Below are positions 1,373 through 12,612 of a stretch of DNA of 14,608 bases, piece after piece (within the stretch, counting starts at the first letter, position 1; the number at the start of each line of letters is the position of its first letter). The translations under genes were made by a program, and so were the position numbers. The notes under the pieces are model-generated. The model saw only the letters and a program-made list of their open reading frames with translations, ran no database searches and was not told the DNA's origin. The stretch comes from Candidatus Thorarchaeota archaeon (GTDB taxonomy: Archaea; Asgardarchaeota; Thorarchaeia; Thorarchaeales; Thorarchaeaceae): positions 18,895 through 33,502 of the forward strand of contig JBHLQM010000036.1 in NCBI GenBank assembly GCA_048884785.1. Reading direction: 5' to 3'.

Positions 1373-3778
1373 GTGCGTCCTTTGACAATTGAAGATGTAG
1401 ATGTATCTAGCAAAATCTGGTCTCCCTCTGAAAACCTGCCGCCTCGAATAAGACGTTTGAGAAGTCATTTCTATTCATTTCATGATAGGAAGGAGACAAA
1501 TGAGCCCTATTCTTTTACAACCGGTACAGAATGGGATGAGGTCTATTCCATTCATGATTGGGCTAATGAGCCTGCATTATATCCATTCTTTCCTTCAGTA
1601 AACGCTACCTTGCAAGCCATGGCAGTTCCAGTTGAGATTCCTGATGATTTCTGGAAAAATAGTCTTCCAATGCGTCGTGCAATCTTTTTCCACGAAGTGA
1701 TGACCAAGTATATGCCTATCACAATATTAGAGGACGATTTGATTGTAGGTTTCCATTTCAATACAGCTCTTTCAAGAACCCTGAATAGGCAGGAAACCAA
1801 GGCAAGAAACAAAGATTCAGAGAAATGGTTTGATGAGGCAAAGCGACTCAGCAAAGTTGGAGTGGGCACAGCATCTTCAATTCCTGGTCATGTTATTCCA
1901 AACTATTCGAAGGTCATGAAAATCGGTATGAAAGGACTTGTTGAGGAGTATGAGGAAATTCTAAAAAATGACTTATCTGATAATCATAGGCAATTTGTTG
2001 AATCCCTTATACTTAGTTGCAGGACTGCCAAGGAGTTCAATGAGCGTCAAGCACTGAAAGCTATGGAACTGGCAAAGACTACTTCTGATCCAAAAAGGAA
2101 GAAGGAATTAGAAGAGATTGCTAGAATCTGTTTAAAGGTTCCCTGGGAAGTCCCTCAAACCTTCTGGGAGGCACTTCAGTCTCTTTGGACCGTGCACATG
2201 CTTGTAATGGCAGCCGAATCATATCCTGGCGCAGGTCTTTCCTATGGCCGTTGGGATCAATACATGTATCCTTTCTATAAAAAGAGCATTGAATCTGGTG
2301 ATTTGACGGTTGAGAAGGCAAAAGAGCTATTACAGTGCTACTGGATCAAACACAATTACGTGTATGATTTTCAGGGAAGACTGGGTCTGAACCAAGGCAT
2401 AAACTCAAGCTTTGGACAGCTTATCACTCTTGGTGGATGTGGAGCAAATGGGGAGGACCTTACAAATGATTTGACTTGGCTTGCACTTGATGTCATTGAG
2501 GAGATGAATCTTTTAGAGCCGAAACCCAATGTGAGAATTCACAAGAACACACCTGACAAACTTCTCCTTCGCCTTGCTGAGATGCTATCAAAAGCACAGG
2601 GTTCTCCATTTTTGTTGAACTTTGATGAGCATAGTATAGAGGGACTTGTCTGGCAGGGCATTCCCCGTGAAGATGCATGGGACTATGGAATTGTTGGTTG
2701 CCTAGAAAACACCATGCAGGGAAATGATAGATCTGATACTGTTGATGTGAATATCAATCTCGCGAAGGCTGTGGAATTCGCACTGAATGATGGCAAAGAT
2801 ATGCTTACCTGTGAACAAATGGGTCTCAAAACTGGCAATCCTTTGGGCTTTGATACCTATGAGAGGTTTTTGAGCGCTGTAAAATCTCAGCTTGCAGAGC
2901 TAGTTAGGCTTCTGGTACGATGCGGCAACATGGCTGATACATTGAGGGCTAGATATCAACCTACACCGTATCTGAGCGCATTAATGGATGGGTGCGCGGA
3001 AAGAGGAAAAGACATCAACGAAGGCGGAACAGACTGGAATTTTAATACCATGGAAGGAATGGGAATTGCTACACTTGCCGATTCAGTTGTTGCAGTGAAG
3101 AAGCTGGTATACGAAGAAAAACGGTGTTCGTTGGAAGAACTGCTTCAGGCAATTCGCGATAATTATGAAGGGCATGAGGAACTCCATCAAATGCTCAGGA
3201 CCAAAGCACCCAAGTTTGGAAACGACAATAAGGATGCTGATGACGTAGCCCGTGAATTGTCAACGTTCTGGGCAAACGAAGTGGTCAAGTATGAGAACCC
3301 CTTTACTGAACGAAAGTATCGTGCAGGCTATCTCTCTTGGAATTACTTCATACCATTAGCACCGTTGACAGCAGCAACACCTGATGGAAGGCGGCGTGGA
3401 GAGTTTCTATCTGGCGGAGTGGGTGCCGTTCAAGGAATGGATGCAAAGGGGCCGACTGCTTCAAGTATGTCCGTTGGTAAACTAGGCTTGGAAACAATTC
3501 CTAATGGGGCTTCGCACACTATTACATTAAGTCCGTCAATGGTTCGAACCCCTGAACACATTTCCAAACTAGCCTCGTTTCTGAGAGCCTATAATGAAGT
3601 AGGAGGAACGGCATTACAGATCAATATCATCGATAGTAAAACACTCAGGGATGCTCAAGCGAATCCTGACCGGTACTCTAATCTCCTTGTACGAGTAACA
3701 GGCTACAATGCATTCTTCACACAAATAGGTCGTGAGCTGCAGGAAGAGATTATCTCGAGAACGGAGCATAATCTGTGA
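1373..3778 (+). CDS. Glycyl radical enzyme (PFL2/eliminase-like superfamily, single catalytic Cys), substrate unknown
   Basis: 801 aa, GTG start. C-terminal glycyl-radical motif LLVRVTGY (Gly777). Thiyl loop YGIVGCLEN (Cys443, Glu445). Other GRE hallmarks are PGHVIPNY, P.TFWEALQ, SYGRWDQY, APKFGND, ATPDGRRRGE and LQIN. It is adjacent to an activase. Confidence 0.95.
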   Translation: MRPLTIEDVDVSSKIWSPSENLPPRIRRLRSHFYSFHDRKETNEPYSFTTGTEWDEVYSIHDWANEPALYPFFPSVNATLQAMAVPVEIPDDFWKNSLPMRRAIFFHEVMTKYMPITILEDDLIVGFHFNTALSRTLNRQETKARNKDSEKWFDEAKRLSKVGVGTASSIPGHVIPNYSKVMKIGMKGLVEEYEEILKNDLSDNHRQFVESLILSCRTAKEFNERQALKAMELAKTTSDPKRKKELEEIARICLKVPWEVPQTFWEALQSLWTVHMLVMAAESYPGAGLSYGRWDQYMYPFYKKSIESGDLTVEKAKELLQCYWIKHNYVYDFQGRLGLNQGINSSFGQLITLGGCGANGEDLTNDLTWLALDVIEEMNLLEPKPNVRIHKNTPDKLLLRLAEMLSKAQGSPFLLNFDEHSIEGLVWQGIPREDAWDYGIVGCLENTMQGNDRSDTVDVNINLAKAVEFALNDGKDMLTCEQMGLKTGNPLGFDTYERFLSAVKSQLAELVRLLVRCGNMADTLRARYQPTPYLSALMDGCAERGKDINEGGTDWNFNTMEGMGIATLADSVVAVKKLVYEEKRCSLEELLQAIRDNYEGHEELHQMLRTKAPKFGNDNKDADDVARELSTFWANEVVKYENPFTERKYRAGYLSWNYFIPLAPLTAATPDGRRRGEFLSGGVGAVQGMDAKGPTASSMSVGKLGLETIPNGASHTITLSPSMVRTPEHISKLASFLRAYNEVGGTALQINIIDSKTLRDAQANPDRYSNLLVRVTGYNAFFTQIGRELQEEIISRTEHNL

Positions 3779-4746
3779 TGACAACATCTGGGCTGATCAC
3801 AAACATACAACGCTGCTCGACAGAGGATGGACCTGGCATTAGAACATCCGTATTTCTAAAAGGGTGTCCATTGCATTGTATATGGTGTCATAACATTGAA
3901 ACTATTGACCCTAAACCTCGATTGATATGGCACTCTAGAAAATGCATTGCCGATCAAGCCTGTGTCAAGTCCTGCCCAGAAGAAGCACTCACTCTCACTT
4001 CTGATGGAATGAAGATCGACTTGGAAAAATGCTCTCTATGCGAAATCTGTGAGGATGTATGTCCTTCGGGAGCTCTTGAGATTATGGGAAAGGAATGGGC
4101 TTCCAATGAGTTGGTTGAGGAGTTGCTTCGTGACAGAGTATTCTTTGAGACCTCAAACGGAGGAGTTACAATTACTGGTGGAGAGCCACTATTTCAGCAT
4201 GAATTCGCAACGGAAATCGCTTCAGGACTAAAATTGAATAATATTCATGTCGCACTAGATACGTCAGGCTATTCAAATGAGCATGTTTGGAGAAGTATTT
4301 TGCAACATATCGATCTTCTTCTATTGGACCTGAAAGTCATGGATGGAGATTTGCACATGAAGTATACTGGAGTTCCTCTAGAGAGAATTCTTGAGAATGC
4401 GAAGATTGCGTCAAAGCTAGGAATACCCGTATGGATACGCACTCCAATTATCCCAGACCATACTGATTCTCAGGAGAACATTAGGGCTATCTCCTCTTTC
4501 ATTATGGAGTATCTCCCTACAGTGGAAAGATATGACCTACTCGCGTTCAACAAGATGTGTACTGAGAAATACACTCTCTTTGGTCTTGAGTATCCGCTTA
4601 AGGGACATGATTTAATTGAGAAGGAAAAAATGAAGCGGCTAGCAGATGTTGCGAGAGATGAAGGTGTATCGAATGTTACATGGTCCGGTATGACAAAACG
4701 AGATGCCGGAAAGAGTATCAAGAATGCAAATCACGAGGTGAGTTAA
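3778..4746 (+). CDS. Glycyl-radical activating enzyme (radical SAM) with ferredoxin-like insert
   Basis: DGPGIRTSVFLKGCPLHCIWCHN (CxxxCxxC), GGVTITGGEP, DTSGY and LLDLK motifs. The insert has CIADQACVKSCP and CSLCEICEDVCP. The start overlaps the GRE stop (GTGATG: GTG 3775 or ATG 3778). Confidence 0.95.
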   Translation: MTTSGLITNIQRCSTEDGPGIRTSVFLKGCPLHCIWCHNIETIDPKPRLIWHSRKCIADQACVKSCPEEALTLTSDGMKIDLEKCSLCEICEDVCPSGALEIMGKEWASNELVEELLRDRVFFETSNGGVTITGGEPLFQHEFATEIASGLKLNNIHVALDTSGYSNEHVWRSILQHIDLLLLDLKVMDGDLHMKYTGVPLERILENAKIASKLGIPVWIRTPIIPDHTDSQENIRAISSFIMEYLPTVERYDLLAFNKMCTEKYTLFGLEYPLKGHDLIEKEKMKRLADVARDEGVSNVTWSGMTKRDAGKSIKNANHEVS

Positions 4747-4747
4747 T

Positions 4748-5569
4748 GTGCATAGTATAATTCCCGAAAAACTGTCAAACGCTTTGAATATCTTTGAAAC
4801 ACCTAAGTTCATGATCACTCGGGATGCCAGTGGAGAGCCAAATATAGCTCTTGTCATGACTTGGACAGTCTATGACAAAAATCGTCTGGTGTATGGCGAT
4901 TTCATGACATACAAATCACGCATGAATCTAATAGATGGAAATTCGAAGATGGCACTACTGGTCATGACAACGGATCTCAATAGTTGGCTGATTAAGGCTG
5001 ATTTTGAGTCATATCACAAGAATGATGAGATCTATGAATACATAGCAACGACACCTCTTTTCAAGTATAATCAATACACCAATGCAAGAGGAGCTGGTCT
5101 TGCTGAAGCGAGATGGATAAGCCCTGAGTACTCCATTTCCAAGCTCAATGTTCTCTCAGGGTACCTCAAAGCAAAACTCGCAGCTCGAGGAGTATCCTAC
5201 AATGAAACGGAGGAGGGAAATATGCCTCGTCCAGTCATGGACCGTTTTTCTAAGATGGCTGCAGTCAAAATCCTATCCTTTATCGGTGAAGATGGGTATC
5301 CGGAAGCCTTTCCCGCCTTTGGCATTGTTCCAGCACATAGAAACAGTCTCACTGTAAATCGAACAGAAGAGAACCGCCGAGGATATCACCTAAGTGAGGG
5401 CCAACGCGTTGCAATATCCCTAGTCACCCTTGAGCCAGCTGCATTTCAAGTCAAAGGCGTTTTCAGAGAAGTTAGTTCGAAATCCGGAATAGTAGAGGTT
5501 GACCGAGTATATGCCTGCTCTCTACCAAGACCTGGTGAGCGAATTGACATTCCTCTGGTTAAAACCTGA
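4748..5569 (+). CDS. Tandem pyridoxamine-5'-phosphate-oxidase-like (split beta-barrel, putative flavin-binding) protein
   Basis: Two similar halves, each opening with the split-barrel pattern: KFMITRDASGEPNIA...KSRMNL..NSKMALLV and KILSFIGEDGYPEAFP...GQRVAISLV...FQVKG. The GTG start is 1 nt after the activase stop and is preceded by GAGGTGA (SD-like). Confidence 0.75.
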   Translation: MHSIIPEKLSNALNIFETPKFMITRDASGEPNIALVMTWTVYDKNRLVYGDFMTYKSRMNLIDGNSKMALLVMTTDLNSWLIKADFESYHKNDEIYEYIATTPLFKYNQYTNARGAGLAEARWISPEYSISKLNVLSGYLKAKLAARGVSYNETEEGNMPRPVMDRFSKMAAVKILSFIGEDGYPEAFPAFGIVPAHRNSLTVNRTEENRRGYHLSEGQRVAISLVTLEPAAFQVKGVFREVSSKSGIVEVDRVYACSLPRPGERIDIPLVKT

Positions 5570-5595: not shown

Positions 5596-6132
5596 TTGAA
5601 CGAATGGGTTTTTGATGCAAAAAATGGAGGCAGAATATCAATACGCCATGCCAAAGTAACTGATGCCTCAGACCTTTATGCAGGATTTTCTCAAGTTGTT
5701 GCAGAGGGAGAATGGCTACCGGCTAATAGTGCAAACTCGAATCGCAATGAATGGGCGGAATGGATACAGCGAACATATGGCAATCGTGAAGTTCTTCTCG
5801 TTGCTCATGTTGATGGAGAGTATGCAGGACATCTGAGCCTTCAACCAGAAGAATGGATGGCATCAAGGCATGTTGCAAAGCTAGGTGTCATTGTCACCAA
5901 GCCCTATCGTGGATTAGGTGTGGGACGCTCACTGATGATAGCAGCTGAGGATGCCGCCAGACAGCAACGATACGAAAAGATAATCCTAAGTACATTCGAT
6001 AACAATTTCATCGCAAAGTCACTATATGATTCTCTTGGATATCGCTTAATTGGCAAGAGGATGCGTCATTTTTTAATGCCGAAGGGCTATATAGATGAGG
6101 TACTTATGGAAAAGACAATAGTCTATGGATAG
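5596..6132 (+). CDS. GNAT family N-acetyltransferase
   Basis: Acetyl-CoA-binding motif A (VTKPYRGLGVGRSLM) and motif B (NNFIAKSLYDSLGY). N-terminal ISIRHA..DA and C-terminal YIDEVLMEK. TTG start. Confidence 0.9.
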   Translation: MNEWVFDAKNGGRISIRHAKVTDASDLYAGFSQVVAEGEWLPANSANSNRNEWAEWIQRTYGNREVLLVAHVDGEYAGHLSLQPEEWMASRHVAKLGVIVTKPYRGLGVGRSLMIAAEDAARQQRYEKIILSTFDNNFIAKSLYDSLGYRLIGKRMRHFLMPKGYIDEVLMEKTIVYG

Positions 6133-6153: not shown

Positions 6154-6663
6154 ATGTGGAGGAGAATAGTCGACCATTTTAAAGAATCTCCAAGTAGGCT
6201 TGCAGTTGCACAATCACTAGTGCGGCATGGATTTAGAGTGACCAATCCCGGGGAAATCAAGTGTGGAGAGATTAGAATACCTTTGAAATCAATAGGAGAT
6301 GCCTTGGGATTCGATAGAAGAACTGTTCGGGCAACCACCGAGGACATCTGTTCCAACGATGATCTATACTCTTTCTTCTCGGTACTCCTACCTGCGGGTC
6401 CATCTCTAGAAAAAGTGAGCAAAGTTCTGGGCTACGGTGTTGTCACCATATACGTCGAATCACCTGAGAATCCTGGAATCCTATCACAAGTGACATCGAC
6501 TATCGCAGGGTATAACATTCCAATTCGTCAAGTACTCGCAGAGGATGTGGCGATATATGAGCAACCATGTCTCAAAGTCATCACACAGGAACCTTTACCT
6601 GGAGGAGTTATTGGTGCTCTTACGGGGATTGAAGGAGTCAGTAGAGTTATCATTGACAAGTAG
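6154..6663 (+). CDS. Archaeal ACT-domain putative regulator of amino-acid metabolism (COG2150-like)
   Basis: The N-terminus MW..I...F...PSRL.VA..L..HG, CGEIRIP and IGDALGFDRRTV (HTH-like) is typical of this archaeal family. C-terminal ACT domain PGILSQVTSTIAGYNIPIRQ. Confidence 0.85.
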   Translation: MWRRIVDHFKESPSRLAVAQSLVRHGFRVTNPGEIKCGEIRIPLKSIGDALGFDRRTVRATTEDICSNDDLYSFFSVLLPAGPSLEKVSKVLGYGVVTIYVESPENPGILSQVTSTIAGYNIPIRQVLAEDVAIYEQPCLKVITQEPLPGGVIGALTGIEGVSRVIIDK

Positions 6664-6715: not shown

Positions 6716-8020
6716 GTGTTTCAATCCATGGACCCAGACTTGCACGCTTCAGAACCTGAACAACCTGCGCTGGATGCTGCAACCGCATCAAAGACAGGGA
6801 TGCATCAGGTATGGACATTGGCACTTTCTTTAGCCATACTGCAGGTAGGGTTTGGCATCGTGATCCCAATTTTCCCATATTACATTGTCGCGCTAGGAGC
6901 TTCAGCTCTTGACCTTGGAATGCTGGCGGCGTCTTTTGCATTGACACGGATTGTATTAGCTGGTCCGATGGGTGGCCTTTCGGATAGGATTGGTCGGAAG
7001 CCAGTGATGATATTTGCCTTAGTGGGTTTCTCCATTGCCAATGTAATCTACGCATTTGCCCCCAATGTTTTGGTCATGATTGGAGCTCGAGCACTTGAGG
7101 GAGCGGTTTCTGCAGGATTCTTTCCCGCTGCCAATGCATACGTTTCAGATGTAACATCCATTGAGAACCGAGGGGCCGCAATGGGCTATTTGAGCATGGG
7201 GAGCATGGTTGGCTTTGTGATTGGCCCCGCAATTGGAGGAGTGCTGGCTGAGTATCTAGGAGTGCGTATTCCATTTATTGTTGCAGCAATTGCCACACTT
7301 GGTACACTTGGGGCAGTTCAAATTCTAGTGAAAGAACCTGAGAAGACAGCTCAAAAACAGAAATACTCCCATCTGAGGCAGAAAGTACCTGTAGTCAGTG
7401 TACTGAGGAATAATACCAAGGCCTACTCAGCATTGGGCATTTCCATGTTTGCGAATATGTTTGCTCTTGGAATTCTAGAGGTTGCATTCACTCTTGATGC
7501 TGTTCAGAGATTCGGAATCACACCCATTGAGATTGGTGGATTCTTCGGGGTTCTAGGGGTCGTAACGATATTTGGAAATATTATATTCGGAAAACTTTCA
7601 GACCGACTTGGACGCAAATGGCTGATCGTTTTTGGTTCACTTGTTGGCGCATTATCATTATACTTCTTCATGATAGCATCAGACGTCATAGGCTTCTATC
7701 TAGGTGGAATTACACTTGGAATCGCTATGGCAATGAGAGGTCCTGCAATTCAAGCTCTGACTGCTGACTTGACCGATGAATCAGCATATGGCAGCATCAT
7801 GGGTCTGATGGGCGCAGTTAGCAACAGCGCATATGTTGTCGGACCGCTGATCGGAGGTGCATTGTATGACCGAGATGGTGATTCAATAGCGGCTATCGGA
7901 GTTGCGGTTTTTGTTTCAGTTTCGGGTGCACTAGCGGCTGCTGTTGGGCTTCCCAAGAAAGTCAAACGCTATTCAAGAAACAGCAAGGAAGATGAACTCA
8001 TCTCCGAAGGGAATGAATAA
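6716..8020 (+). CDS. MFS transporter, DHA1/TetA-like efflux type
   Basis: About 12 hydrophobic segments. MFS motif A occurs twice (GGLSDRIGRK, GKLSDRLGRK), along with the antiporter motif GFVIGPAIGG. The true start may be ATG 6728. Confidence 0.9.
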   Translation: MFQSMDPDLHASEPEQPALDAATASKTGMHQVWTLALSLAILQVGFGIVIPIFPYYIVALGASALDLGMLAASFALTRIVLAGPMGGLSDRIGRKPVMIFALVGFSIANVIYAFAPNVLVMIGARALEGAVSAGFFPAANAYVSDVTSIENRGAAMGYLSMGSMVGFVIGPAIGGVLAEYLGVRIPFIVAAIATLGTLGAVQILVKEPEKTAQKQKYSHLRQKVPVVSVLRNNTKAYSALGISMFANMFALGILEVAFTLDAVQRFGITPIEIGGFFGVLGVVTIFGNIIFGKLSDRLGRKWLIVFGSLVGALSLYFFMIASDVIGFYLGGITLGIAMAMRGPAIQALTADLTDESAYGSIMGLMGAVSNSAYVVGPLIGGALYDRDGDSIAAIGVAVFVSVSGALAAAVGLPKKVKRYSRNSKEDELISEGNE

Positions 8021-8026
8021 CCCCAT

Positions 8027-8866
8027 CTATACAAACCCCGCAGCGACATATGCAACTACGCTCTTTCTATCTCCCGTCACATCACCTGACGTAGTGTACT
8101 TGAACAATCTATAGCCTGTTGCTCCAAGTTCTTTGGCAAAGACAAGAGCAGTCGCGATAGGTCCTGCACCACAAATGCTCACCCGGTGTTCCTTTACAAA
8201 GCTCAGGAATCCTTTCGGATCAAGATACTCCAAATACTCCATGGCTTGATTGTCCTTTATCTTTGCATTCTGAGCGCTTTCGAAATGAGTGAAATCCGAA
8301 CTTGCAATCACTAAAATATCCATTTCATCTGAGAGAGAAGCTATCGATTTTCCAAGCGATTCGACAACTTCATACCTATAGTCTCCCAAGCAAATTGGGA
8401 CGAAGCTTACGTTTTCACCAAAGATATACTGAAGGAAGGGGACTTGAACTTCTATGGAATGCTCTGAGCTGTGAGCAATGCAATCTTCATTGGTGTACTT
8501 GTTCTGTTCAATAATGGCTGGTCCCAGTATAGTATCATACTTGGCTACACCGAGGGGCGTCTTCCAGTCTTGGTTACAGACTGCGACAGGCGCACCATAG
8601 CCTGAGTGATTGGGACCTATGATAACGATGTGATCCGGTTTGCCATCTTCATACAGATTGATGTAGCTATGAGCCGCTGGCATTCCTGAATAGACATACC
8701 CCGCATGTGGAGCTACCAGAGCTTTCAAACTTCTGCTACCTCCAGGTTCGCCTTGTGGAAGTCTTCCTGGACCCATTCCCTTGAGAAAACACTCTTCAAT
8801 TCTCTTGACTAGGATGTCTTGCTGCCCTTCATAGAATCTTCCGGCTACAACAGGGAGTCTTGTCAT
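8027..8866 (-). CDS. amrB: MEMO1-family protein (AmmeMemoRadiSam system protein B)
   Basis: Motifs R.PVVAGRFY, APHAGYVYSG, GPNHSG, EHSIEVQVPF, ASSDFTH and SICGAGP. I placed the start at ATG 8866 (MTRLPVVAG), where family similarity begins, rather than 8947. Confidence 0.92.
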   Translation of the reverse strand: MTRLPVVAGRFYEGQQDILVKRIEECFLKGMGPGRLPQGEPGGSRSLKALVAPHAGYVYSGMPAAHSYINLYEDGKPDHIVIIGPNHSGYGAPVAVCNQDWKTPLGVAKYDTILGPAIIEQNKYTNEDCIAHSSEHSIEVQVPFLQYIFGENVSFVPICLGDYRYEVVESLGKSIASLSDEMDILVIASSDFTHFESAQNAKIKDNQAMEYLEYLDPKGFLSFVKEHRVSICGAGPIATALVFAKELGATGYRLFKYTTSGDVTGDRKSVVAYVAAGFV

Positions 8867-8946
8867 GTATGAAACCCAAGAGATGTAATAGCATTCTCTG
8901 AGAAAAGGATTAGGGTCGAAATCAAATCCGAGAGTATGCCGCGACA

Positions 8947-10257
8947 TTATTTCTTTTTGGAGGATTTTAGGAATTTCAGAAGTCCATCTATTTTGACAGC
9001 TGAGGTTTCCTTTGTCTTCATGTCCCTGACACTCACTTCTTTCTTCTGAATGTCCTTAGGTCCAACAATTACCGTGAATCTAGCGCCTTTCTCGTCTGAT
9101 ATTGATAGAAGTTTTGCAAGGGGCCTTCCAAGCAATTCCATCTCGACGGTGAATCCTTCCTTCACAAGCATGCTAGCAAGGCCAGCGGCTTTAGGAACTA
9201 GCTTTTCATTCAGAGGTGCCAAGAAAACATCTATTCCAGTCGACAGATCGATTAGTCCTTTGTTAGCTATTACAATATCAACAAGGCGGTCAATTCCAAG
9301 AGCAACTCCTGTTGCAGGCGTAGGCGGACCACCGAATTTTTCAATCAGATGGTCATATCTACCTCCTCCAAGGATGGAGCCCACTTCTGGTTTGCCAAGA
9401 TATCGTCCCTCAAAAACTGGTCCCGTATAATAGTCGAGACCACGTGCAAGAGCCATATCGAACTCAACCTGATTCTCAACAGATGCCTCCTGAAATACCT
9501 CGGCCATGACCTTCAGTTCGTTTACTCCGTTAATCCCGATATCTGAATCCTTGAGAATATTCTCAAACTCATCAAGTGTTTTTGCACCAGGACCTCGGAT
9601 ATTTAGCGCATCAAGTAGTATTTCACTTGATTTGGCTGAAATTCCACGTGACGACAATTCGTCAGTCACGCCATCTCTGCCAATCTTGTCAAACTTGTCA
9701 ATGGACCGGAAGCATTCATAGGAAAGATTCTCCTTTACTCCGGCTATCTCTACGAGTCCTCGCAAAACCTTGCGATTGTTGATTTTAATAAGATAGTTGT
9801 CTTTTAGGGTGCGTCTGGCGAATTCCAAAGCAACAAGAACAACCTCTGCATCAGCAACTGGGCTGCTTGCTCCAATTATATCTACATCTGCCTGCATGAA
9901 CTCTCTGTACCTTCCAGCCTGAGGACGATCATACCTCCAAGCTTTTCCAATCGCGTACCGCTTGAATGGTTTTGGCAAATGCGGATTCGATGCGACAATT
10001 CTTGCTAGAGGAACTGTCAAGTCGAATCTAAGGCCAACTTCACGTCCCCCTTTATCCTCGAATTTGAATGTTTCAGACTCAACTTCTTCTCCGCCTTTGG
10101 CAGATAGTGTCTCCCATAACTCCATCACCGGAGAATCAAGAGGCTCATAACCAAAGCGCTTGAAGACCTGCGTTGCCTGGTCAACAATGTAGTTTCTAAC
10201 CAACATCTCATTTCCCATCAGGTCTCTCATACCTCTTACTGTACGCATATCACTCAA
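8947..10257 (-). CDS. hisS: Histidine--tRNA ligase
   Basis: Motifs RGMRD, LRFDLTVPLAR, WRYDRPQAGRYREFMQADVD, LARGLDYYTG and GGGRYD, plus a C-terminal anticodon-binding domain. The start is probably TTG 10257, with AAGGAGG at 10272-10266 upstream. ATG 10248 is an alternative. Confidence 0.96.
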   Translation of the reverse strand: MSDMRTVRGMRDLMGNEMLVRNYIVDQATQVFKRFGYEPLDSPVMELWETLSAKGGEEVESETFKFEDKGGREVGLRFDLTVPLARIVASNPHLPKPFKRYAIGKAWRYDRPQAGRYREFMQADVDIIGASSPVADAEVVLVALEFARRTLKDNYLIKINNRKVLRGLVEIAGVKENLSYECFRSIDKFDKIGRDGVTDELSSRGISAKSSEILLDALNIRGPGAKTLDEFENILKDSDIGINGVNELKVMAEVFQEASVENQVEFDMALARGLDYYTGPVFEGRYLGKPEVGSILGGGRYDHLIEKFGGPPTPATGVALGIDRLVDIVIANKGLIDLSTGIDVFLAPLNEKLVPKAAGLASMLVKEGFTVEMELLGRPLAKLLSISDEKGARFTVIVGPKDIQKKEVSVRDMKTKETSAVKIDGLLKFLKSSKKK

Positions 10258-10280
10258 AATGAAGGCCTCCTTATACTTCT

Positions 10281-10366
10281 CCGGCGACAACATGAGATGG
10301 CACATTGCGTTGAATCATTCCAGAAGTAGATGAACAAATCCACCATCTTTCACTATTTGTCACCAG
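10281..10366 (-). ncRNA. Candidate structured 5' leader (long hairpin) of hisS
   Basis: On the minus strand CUGGUGACAA (10366-10357) pairs with UUGUCGCCGG (10290-10281), and AGAUGGUG (10348-10341) pairs with UGCCAUCU (10302-10295). All four non-Watson-Crick positions are G-U on this strand. The hairpin lies between a TATA-like element and the SD. Confidence 0.45.
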
Positions 10367-11856: not shown

Positions 11857-12576
11857 TTAGTCCAGCCACGTATGCTTTAGCAAAACTGAGAGTGGAACAT
11901 CATAGGTTTCGCCAGTAGGCAATGTTCTTCTCAGAGTCATTGGGAGTACTCCAGAAGCCAATTCCAATTCGGCCAATGCAAACAATCCTGAAGGTGCTTT
12001 GCTTGTATCAACAAGAACAGGAGCTCCCATTGATATCTGCAGAGCCCTGGCTCCAACGATTCTTGCTCTTTCGAATTTGGTCAGCCATTTGGGTCCTGCA
12101 TGGATACCCAGATCGGCCTTCTCCTTTTCCAGGCCTGATGAGAGGGACACTCTTTCGAATGCTTGCTCAATCTCCTCTGTTGGAGGCAGTTCGTGTCTCT
12201 CTGGCTCTGGCTCCTGAGTTTTCTTTCTTTTGGATTTCTTTGATTTCCCTACTAAGTCAATAGCCCCTGCTTCGACTGCCTCTAGGAGAGCCTTCGCCTC
12301 CTCAATGATTGCTTCTGCCTTTGACACACTGAACCCTGAAACTGCTCCGGCTAGTTCTTCCGCATTAGCTTCGGCGATCTTGTCAATTGTGTCATATCCC
12401 TTTTCCACCAGTTTGATGGCATTCTTGGGACCAACACCCTGGATATTTGTAAGAATCTCGGATTTTTCAGCGTCCGTAATCTCCTCGGATTCCTCGGATT
12501 CCTCAGATTCCTCGGACTCTTCATCATCCTCTTCTTCCTGTTCTGCGTCGATTGTCTTTTCGGGGTCTTCTGACAT
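11857..12576 (-). CDS. rpoK: DNA-directed RNA polymerase subunit Rpo6 (K; RPB6/omega homolog) with N-terminal acidic tract and HhH domain
   Basis: The C-terminal ~80 aa carry the RPB6 signature LTKFERARIVGARALQISMGAPVLV...ELASGVLPMTLRRTLP.G. The N-terminal part has an HhH motif (LTNIQGVGPKNAIKLVEKGY). Start is ATG 12576 with AGGTG ~9 nt upstream, or GTG 12588. Confidence 0.93.
   Translation of the reverse strand: MSEDPEKTIDAEQEEEDDEESEESEESEESEEITDAEKSEILTNIQGVGPKNAIKLVEKGYDTIDKIAEANAEELAGAVSGFSVSKAEAIIEEAKALLEAVEAGAIDLVGKSKKSKRKKTQEPEPERHELPPTEEIEQAFERVSLSSGLEKEKADLGIHAGPKWLTKFERARIVGARALQISMGAPVLVDTSKAPSGLFALAELELASGVLPMTLRRTLPTGETYDVPLSVLLKHTWLD
12482..12517 (+). repeat. 4 x 9-bp coding tandem repeat (TCCTCGGAT)
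   Basis: tcctcggat-tcctcggat-tcctcagat-tcctcggac. It encodes the (SEE)4 acidic tract of Rpo6 on the minus strand. Confidence 0.9.
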
Positions 12577-12612
12577 TAGTTGCGACACCTTCGATTGTTC
12601 GTATGATTCTTT

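Follow-up and report, generated by a model that had tools for sequence, protein, structure and literature searches.

A conserved glycyl radical enzyme module with a split-barrel partner in Asgard archaea

Glycyl radical enzymes (GREs) perform key anaerobic reactions, and a three-gene cluster in an Asgard archaeon raises the question of what chemistry such an enzyme carries out when its operon also encodes a protein made of two split barrels. The cluster lies in a stretch of 14,608 nucleotides (nt), hereafter the window, from a Candidatus Thorarchaeota archaeon (contig JBHLQM010000036.1, positions 18,895 to 33,502), part of a 3.6-Mb, 91%-complete Asgard assembly. It encodes a GRE, an enzyme of an oxygen-sensitive kind, the radical S-adenosylmethionine (SAM) enzyme that would activate it (the activase), and a split-barrel protein (SB). 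We find that these genes form a real, conserved GRE module without a published description, and that the split-barrel partner is inherited with the GRE, for which we found no described precedent: no paper joining "glycyl radical" and "split barrel", and no description of the trio, turned up in the literature searched. The module is laid out as follows (aa, amino acids).

1373-3778, + strand: GRE, 801 aa from GTG 1373 or 798 aa from TTG 1382 (Pfam, NCBIfam and PDB matches)
3776-3780, + strand: TGATG, a one-base overlap (A 3778) between the GRE stop (TGA 3776-3778) and the activase start (ATG 3778-3780), read directly from the sequence
3778-4746, + strand: GRE-activating radical SAM enzyme from ATG 3778, with an in-frame GTG at 3775
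3865-3888, + strand: CPLHCIWC, the CX3CX2C radical SAM cluster motif
4735-4741, + strand: GAGGTGA ribosome-binding site, 6 nt upstream of GTG 4748
4744-4746, + strand: activase stop TAA, one base from the SB start GTG 4748, read directly from the sequence
4748-5569, + strand: SB, 273 aa, two split barrels

The three genes abut and leave no intergenic room for an additional small-subunit gene. An earlier note on this DNA had described them as tightly coupled, and the open reading frames (ORFs) and both junctions, with TGATG, the 1-nt gap and GAGGTGA, read as it stated. Translation of the GRE may begin at TTG 1382 instead of GTG 1373, because the database copy is 798 aa long and alignments with homologues of the same genus begin at residue 4. 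The activase scores 312.8 bits against TIGR02494 (cut-off 174.35) and carries, at residues 57-96, seven more invariant Cys that form a ferredoxin-like insert.

Family placement and active site of the glycyl radical enzyme

A PFL-like barrel (PF02901, 5.4e-148), a C-terminal Gly_radical domain (PF01228, 9.7e-24), an RVxGY loop and a PFLE_PFLC-type activase alongside place the enzyme in the GRE superfamily. Its main active-site features are these.

1889-1891, + strand: His173, counterpart of glycerol dehydratase His164 by alignment to 1r8w, invariant in alignments A2 and A3
2216-2236, + strand: ESYPGAG, a clade-specific pocket segment with Ala287/Gly288 at His281/Ser282 of glycerol dehydratase
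2411-2419, + strand: FGQ, with Gly348 at Tyr339 of glycerol dehydratase
2696-2710, + strand: Cys loop GCLEN, with the single catalytic Cys443 and Glu445, followed by a conserved TxQGNDRSGTVDVN
3329-3346, + strand: YLSWNY, a clade-invariant strand with Leu654 at Tyr640 of glycerol dehydratase
3692-3706, + strand: glycine loop RVTGY, with Gly777 as the predicted radical site

Across the clade alignments the segments ESYPGxG, GFGQL, GCLENTxQGNDRSGTVD, YLSWNY and RVTGYNAYF are invariant; residue by residue, this holds for C443, L444, E445, N446 and T447 (alignment A3) and for R774, T776, G777 and Y778. Pyruvate formate-lyase (PFL) requires an adjacent Cys-Cys pair. The GRE has one Cys at 2696-2710 and no such pair, as the earlier note had seen when it pointed to a single catalytic Cys in GCLEN.

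The enzyme was placed by NCBIfam curated cut-offs and PDB bit scores, in lieu of a phylogeny with characterised GREs, and it falls below every one of these cut-offs. The PFL2/glycerol dehydratase subfamily model (PFL2-3, TIGR01774) gives 517.7 bits against a cut-off of 678.2 and matches residues 169-801 only. All equivalog models fail too: HypD, the best of them, reaches 469 bits for a cut-off of 1100, CutC 411 for 1050, HpsG 455 for 1000, HpfG 418 for 1000, indoleacetate decarboxylase 306 for 1100 and 4-hydroxyphenylacetate decarboxylase 260 for 1150, and the PFL model TIGR01255 gives 100.3 for 994.2. Among PDB entries, glycerol dehydratase (1r8w, 432 bits) comes first, followed by propanediol dehydratase (389 bits), Archaeoglobus fulgidus PflD, CutC and HypD (368 bits); MasD scores 219, BssA/TutD 204 and PFL 104 bits. 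By sequence, the GRE is an orphan clade of the PFL2/eliminase-like branch, outside every characterised family, which is what the earlier note had claimed of it. Its orthologues across Asgard archaea share 45-79% identity.

The best solved relative is the B12-independent glycerol dehydratase DhaB1/DhaB2 of Clostridium butyricum (1r8w/1r9d), at 3.7e-128 over residues 171-799. As in DhaB1, the catalytic set is present, with Cys443, Glu445 and His173 aligned to Cys433, Glu435 and His164 and a C-terminal Gly loop in common, and as in the DhaB1/DhaB2 system an activase with a ferredoxin-like insert is encoded next door. The pocket differs: in the 1r8w alignment His281, Ser282, Tyr339 (Phe in propanediol dehydratase), Asp447 and Tyr640, which we take from the 1r9d literature to be the substrate-binding residues, give way to Ala287, Gly288, Gly348, Val457 and Leu654. 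Moreover, the first 170 residues bear no relation to DhaB1 and hold a clade-specific insertion of ~55 residues, conserved throughout the clade and absent from two same-genome paralogues; the GRE stays below the PFL2-3 cut-off, no 1,3-propanediol dehydrogenase accompanies it, and the split-barrel partner is extra here. Propanediol dehydratase (5i2a), HypD (6vxc), CutC (5fau), HpsG/HpfG and IslA (7kq3) likewise share the superfamily branch and the C-x-E loop, with E values of 1e-95 to 1e-115, but their equivalog models are missed more than 2-fold in bits and their usual partners (bacterial microcompartment (BMC) shell, aldehyde dehydrogenase, pyrroline-5-carboxylate (P5C) reductase, sulfite reductase) are not in the window. 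Pfam and NCBIfam scans, in agreement with the earlier note, find no genes for BMC shell proteins, aldehyde/alcohol dehydrogenases, P5C reductase or a small Cys-rich subunit in the window.

The retention of Cys443, Glu445 and His173 makes an eliminase-type mechanism plausible, and we read the GRE as an eliminase-type enzyme with a wider, differently lined pocket. The earlier note had suggested an elimination or decarboxylation using Glu445; the eliminase half of that idea is compatible with the residues, and the reaction type is proposed here rather than assigned.

Asgard GREs have been given other names. Single-Cys members have been labelled alkyl- or benzylsuccinate synthases (Ass/Bss) at 29-33% identity to AssA/BssA (PMC8163825), the metabolism of MK-D1 has been modelled with "2-oxoacid-formate lyases" feeding syntrophic formate transfer (PMC7015854), and database entries carry the names "pyruvate formate lyase family protein" and "formate C-acetyltransferase". 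Neither a succinate synthase nor a formate-lyase label appears to fit this sequence. The X-succinate synthases (BssA/AssA/MasD) lie far off in score (MasD at 219 and BssA/TutD at 204 bits against 368-432 bits for the eliminases, with glycerol dehydratase at 432), and there is no small Cys-rich ORF, no gene for a small beta or gamma subunit and no room for any. On the formate-lyase side, the loop is G-C-L-E, the TIGR01255 score is 100 against 994 bits, and five Asgard genomes yielded no true PFL in searches that detected the controls. We regard it as very improbable that the GRE is a hydrocarbon-activating alkyl- or benzylsuccinate synthase or a 2-oxoacid or pyruvate formate-lyase.

Inheritance of the split-barrel gene with the glycyl radical enzyme

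Is the third gene a chance neighbour, or does it belong to this GRE? The order GRE-activase-SB recurs in 29 of the 29 Thorarchaeia loci examined. Of 400 Asgard genomes, 174 contain SB relatives, and a similar set contains the GRE clade; with coordinates paired by hand, GRE and SB are no more than ~1.2 kb apart in most of ~95 genomes from more than 10 Asgard families, usually with the activase between them and sometimes directly adjacent. Three loci (L041, L042, L044) have no activase in the vicinity and carry SB immediately after the GRE. The trio is also present in two closed Asgard genomes (4.36 and 6.04 Mb) and in bacterial-looking contigs with bacterial-type neighbours (L034, L062). The earlier note had proposed a module in an archaeon that would be refuted if close homologues proved unlinked to the split-barrel gene. 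The linkage does extend to other genomes of the GRE clade, and the archaeal host is borne out by the thermosome and RpoK genes in the window and by nearest homologues named Thorarchaeota; the module itself is not confined to archaea.

The family designated f1 offers a closer view. SB orthologues are found there only where the orthologous GRE is present, the three apparent exceptions being contig edges or fragments. Many genomes within f1 lack the orthologous GRE and SB, although an orthologue of the activase (55-65% identity) is still there. At all 10 such loci that were fetched, the activase stands between the divergent upstream neighbour, directly on its one side, and the genes for a GNAT acetyltransferase, a regulator and an MFS transporter on the other; its two flanking genes, GRE and SB, are missing. 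A 31-aa remnant of the GRE C-terminus at one GRE/SB-less locus (L051) speaks for loss. On the maximum-likelihood tree of the activase, the GRE/SB-less state takes 6 changes, with well-supported branches forcing at least 3.

Because two non-adjacent genes come and go jointly around a retained activase, we take SB to be tied to this GRE and not to be a general helper of the activase. The GRE/SB-less genomes still carry other GRE paralogues, from which it follows that the activase can presumably work without SB. This bears on the three roles that the earlier note had offered for SB, namely acting on the product, feeding electrons to the activase or serving as an accessory subunit: the second is disfavoured, since at least 10 genomes keep the activase without SB, and the other two keep the standing of proposals.

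Spelled out, the disfavoured role would make SB a dedicated electron donor that replaces flavodoxin and reduces the radical SAM cluster through the ferredoxin-like insert. The usual position of SB just 3' of the activase, in translational coupling with it, would suit such a donor, as would the activase-SB pairs found apart from any GRE (L035, L047) and the kinship in fold with the flavin mononucleotide (FMN)-binding protein of Desulfovibrio vulgaris, a small redox protein. We nevertheless think it quite improbable, given that the SB-less orthologous activases stand at the same locus in genomes carrying other GREs, that the source genome has three GREs and, as far as found in this 91%-complete assembly, one activase for all of them, and that L041, L042 and L044 keep SB with the GRE and have their activase elsewhere.

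Two genomes of one genus hold more than one copy of parts of the system. G331 (contigs C41 and C57) and G334 (C10 and C24) each carry a vertically inherited activase orthologue (56-57% identity) and, in addition, a divergent trio of GRE (54-55% identity), activase (43-46%) and SB (28-32%), which suggests that the trio moves as a unit.

At L035 (2161-7855, a metagenome contig) the activase-SB pair overlaps the stop of a gene for a 1292-aa PQQ-beta-propeller/Laminin-G protein, and no GRE lies within 15 kb. Recurring pathway neighbours were found neither at the distant loci L031, L034, L062 and L063, judged by Pfam context, nor at L041-L048, judged by tblastn with six window proteins and the ORF list only.

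Fold and possible role of the split-barrel protein

What, then, might SB do for the GRE? The protein is divided as follows.

4748-5152, + strand: SB N-terminal barrel, carrying TWTVY, KSRMNL and FKYNQYTNARGAG
5168-5569, + strand: SB C-terminal barrel, more diverged

SB itself has no Pfam or NCBIfam match, and as a single sequence it reaches E values of only ~0.3-0.7 in phmmer searches of the PDB. Its family is more telling: 57 of 77 aligned SB relatives match PF01243 (PNPOx_N; best 4.5e-11), and a family profile finds HupZ (2.8e-10) and the FMN-binding protein Swol_0183 of Syntrophomonas (1.4e-8) over the N-terminal half. An AlphaFold2 (AF2) model of the whole protein has a pLDDT of 95.5; in it, residues 4-128 superpose on HupZ 5esc (Z 17.4, rmsd 2.0, 118 aligned), and the N-terminal half matches D. 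vulgaris FMN-bp at Z 15. The C-terminal half modelled alone reaches pLDDT 90, and Foldseek matches it to HupZ, PhdC and FMN-bp at 3e-5 to 1e-3 (TM ~0.55-0.6). Other Asgard genomes have single-domain homologues (L045, L046) to which either half can be aligned; L045 is a single-barrel version of SB. BLASTP detects no similarity between the halves, so that the duplication is seen by fold and transitive homology only.

Because both halves take the split-barrel fold and align to the same single-domain homologues, SB is, as modelled, a fused pseudo-dimer of two FMN-bp/HupZ-type split barrels, in line with the double split-barrel that the earlier note had recognised. The fold of both halves is that of D. 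vulgaris FMN-bp (1axj, 1flm family), Swol_0183 (3in6), COG3576 (2htd) and HupZ (5esc). Proteins of the FMN-bp type are dimers of one barrel, an arrangement that SB mimics; unlike them, it is one chain of two diverged barrels inside a GRE operon. The split-barrel fold normally dimerises around FMN, FAD, F420 or haem. The family consensus conserves a KTxxNL-type segment and an FRYNAYxGxRxAG segment, and the motifs KSRMNL and TWTVY bear a resemblance to FMN-bp.

We favour, with some reserve, a self-contained three-gene module in which an eliminase-type GRE works with SB as its own, likely flavin-type, redox partner. As family membership suggests, the activase would use SAM and its [4Fe-4S] clusters to install a radical on Gly777. 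Judging from the conserved residues, the radical would pass to Cys443, which would abstract a hydrogen from the substrate. Glu445 as base and His173 as acid would most likely assist a 1,2-elimination-type reaction, the GRE acting as a dehydratase or lyase. The substrate is probably polar and larger than glycerol, because small residues (Ala287, Gly288, Gly348 and Leu654) take the places of a His, a Ser and two Tyr of glycerol dehydratase. For SB we think the role of a flavin-type redox partner most likely, one that would work on the GRE's substrate or product, or donate electrons to the reaction or accept them from it, with a tightly bound accessory subunit as a close second.

That second role is the substance of another explanation, in which SB docks on the GRE as a non-catalytic accessory or regulatory subunit with no redox chemistry of its own, much as small subunits do for benzylsuccinate synthase or 4-hydroxyphenylacetate decarboxylase. 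The joint gain and loss of GRE and SB fits it equally well, the ~55-residue N-terminal insertion of the GRE clade could be a docking surface, SB follows the GRE directly at the three loci without a nearby activase, and the glutamyl-tRNA reductase binding protein 4n7r, among the fold matches of SB, is a precedent for a split barrel as binding partner. The conserved KTxxNL-type and FRYNAYxGxRxAG segments, however, suggest a ligand site beyond a protein interface, if we are right in likening them to FMN-binding residues. Known GRE small subunits (BssB/BssC, HpdC) resemble SB as extra proteins inherited with one particular GRE, but they are short Fe-S proteins of unrelated fold, and SB has no Cys-rich motif. 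A complex prediction with GRE residues 13-748, cut at the glycyl-radical domain, and SB residues 5-268 scored 0.38, against 0.52 for one unrelated control, and speaks neither for nor against a complex. We consider a purely accessory role possible and, on balance, rather unlikely.

The redox reading can also be taken a step further. SB could be an obligate flavin- or haem-bearing subunit, making the pair a two-component GRE that couples radical chemistry to electron transfer, for example in a reductive or oxidative elimination. We think this stronger version unlikely, and a shade more so than a purely accessory role.

Several observations weigh against SB as a flavin-type partner of an eliminase-type GRE. 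SB of this window lacks a Pfam match of its own, and its nearest structural relative, HupZ, is described in PDB titles as haem-binding, not as a flavoprotein. The activase-SB pairs of L035 and L047 have no GRE nearby, and a stand-alone SB relative without a nearby GRE sits in a Bacillota conjugative region (L032). In two near-complete genomes of Lokiarchaeia (G268, G272) a clade-like GRE is present, but even the family profile detects no SB. The eliminase assignment itself draws on three conserved residues and homology, so that a decarboxylase or another reaction is also possible. With these points counted, we still find the self-contained module with a GRE-specific, likely flavin-type SB the most probable account.

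Surrounding genes and significance

The trio opens a run of six consecutive + strand genes and is bordered on the left by a divergent gene.

2-1309, - strand: 436-aa protein with internal repeats and a hydrophobic N-terminus, the divergent upstream neighbour and left border of the locus
5596-6132, + strand: GNAT acetyltransferase (Pfam/NCBIfam scans), syntenic neighbour outside the module
6154-6663, + strand: TrpY-family regulator (Pfam/NCBIfam scans), syntenic neighbour outside the module
6716-8020, + strand: MFS transporter (Pfam/NCBIfam scans), syntenic neighbour outside the module

The 436-aa upstream protein has no Pfam match. Since the GNAT, regulator and MFS genes are kept beside the activase at GRE/SB-less loci, they form a separate unit outside the GRE pathway. 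We had considered them, with their TrpY-like regulator, as a hint to an amino-acid-like substrate; the idea was dropped, as loci without GRE and SB still have them next to the activase.

Beyond the MFS gene, at 8027-10305 (- strand), a Memo-like gene abuts a histidyl-tRNA synthetase gene, base 8947 being common to both, followed by genes for an MgtC/DUF4010 membrane protein and a thermosome subunit; the 8027-10305 region looks like ordinary housekeeping context. In an ORF of 243 aa at 11857-12588 (- strand), residues 43-121 form a helix-hairpin-helix region resembling the N-terminus of RadA, and residues 158-239 match RpoK; the ORF could be a true fusion or an over-long call.

Elsewhere in the source genome, the second GRE (G000:C24:17402-19726; L039 7382-9751, - strand) passes the PFL2-3 cut-off with 735 bits. 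It lies between a class I/II aminotransferase gene and genes for a PfkB kinase and a KDPG/KHG aldolase, with no activase beside it, in what looks, from these gene assignments, like a sugar-acid-type pathway. The third GRE, on C63, likewise has no activase beside it.

Asgard archaea are the closest known archaeal relatives of eukaryotes, and the GRE clade described here is among the most widespread GREs in them. Each GRE clade newly assigned so far has revealed a new pathway. If the two closed genomes that carry the trio belong to cultured strains, bench testing would be possible. Should SB prove to be a cofactor-bearing subunit, the reaction class would be new among GREs and widespread in Asgard archaea, and it would explain genes that are now modelled as formate-lyases or hydrocarbon-activating enzymes.

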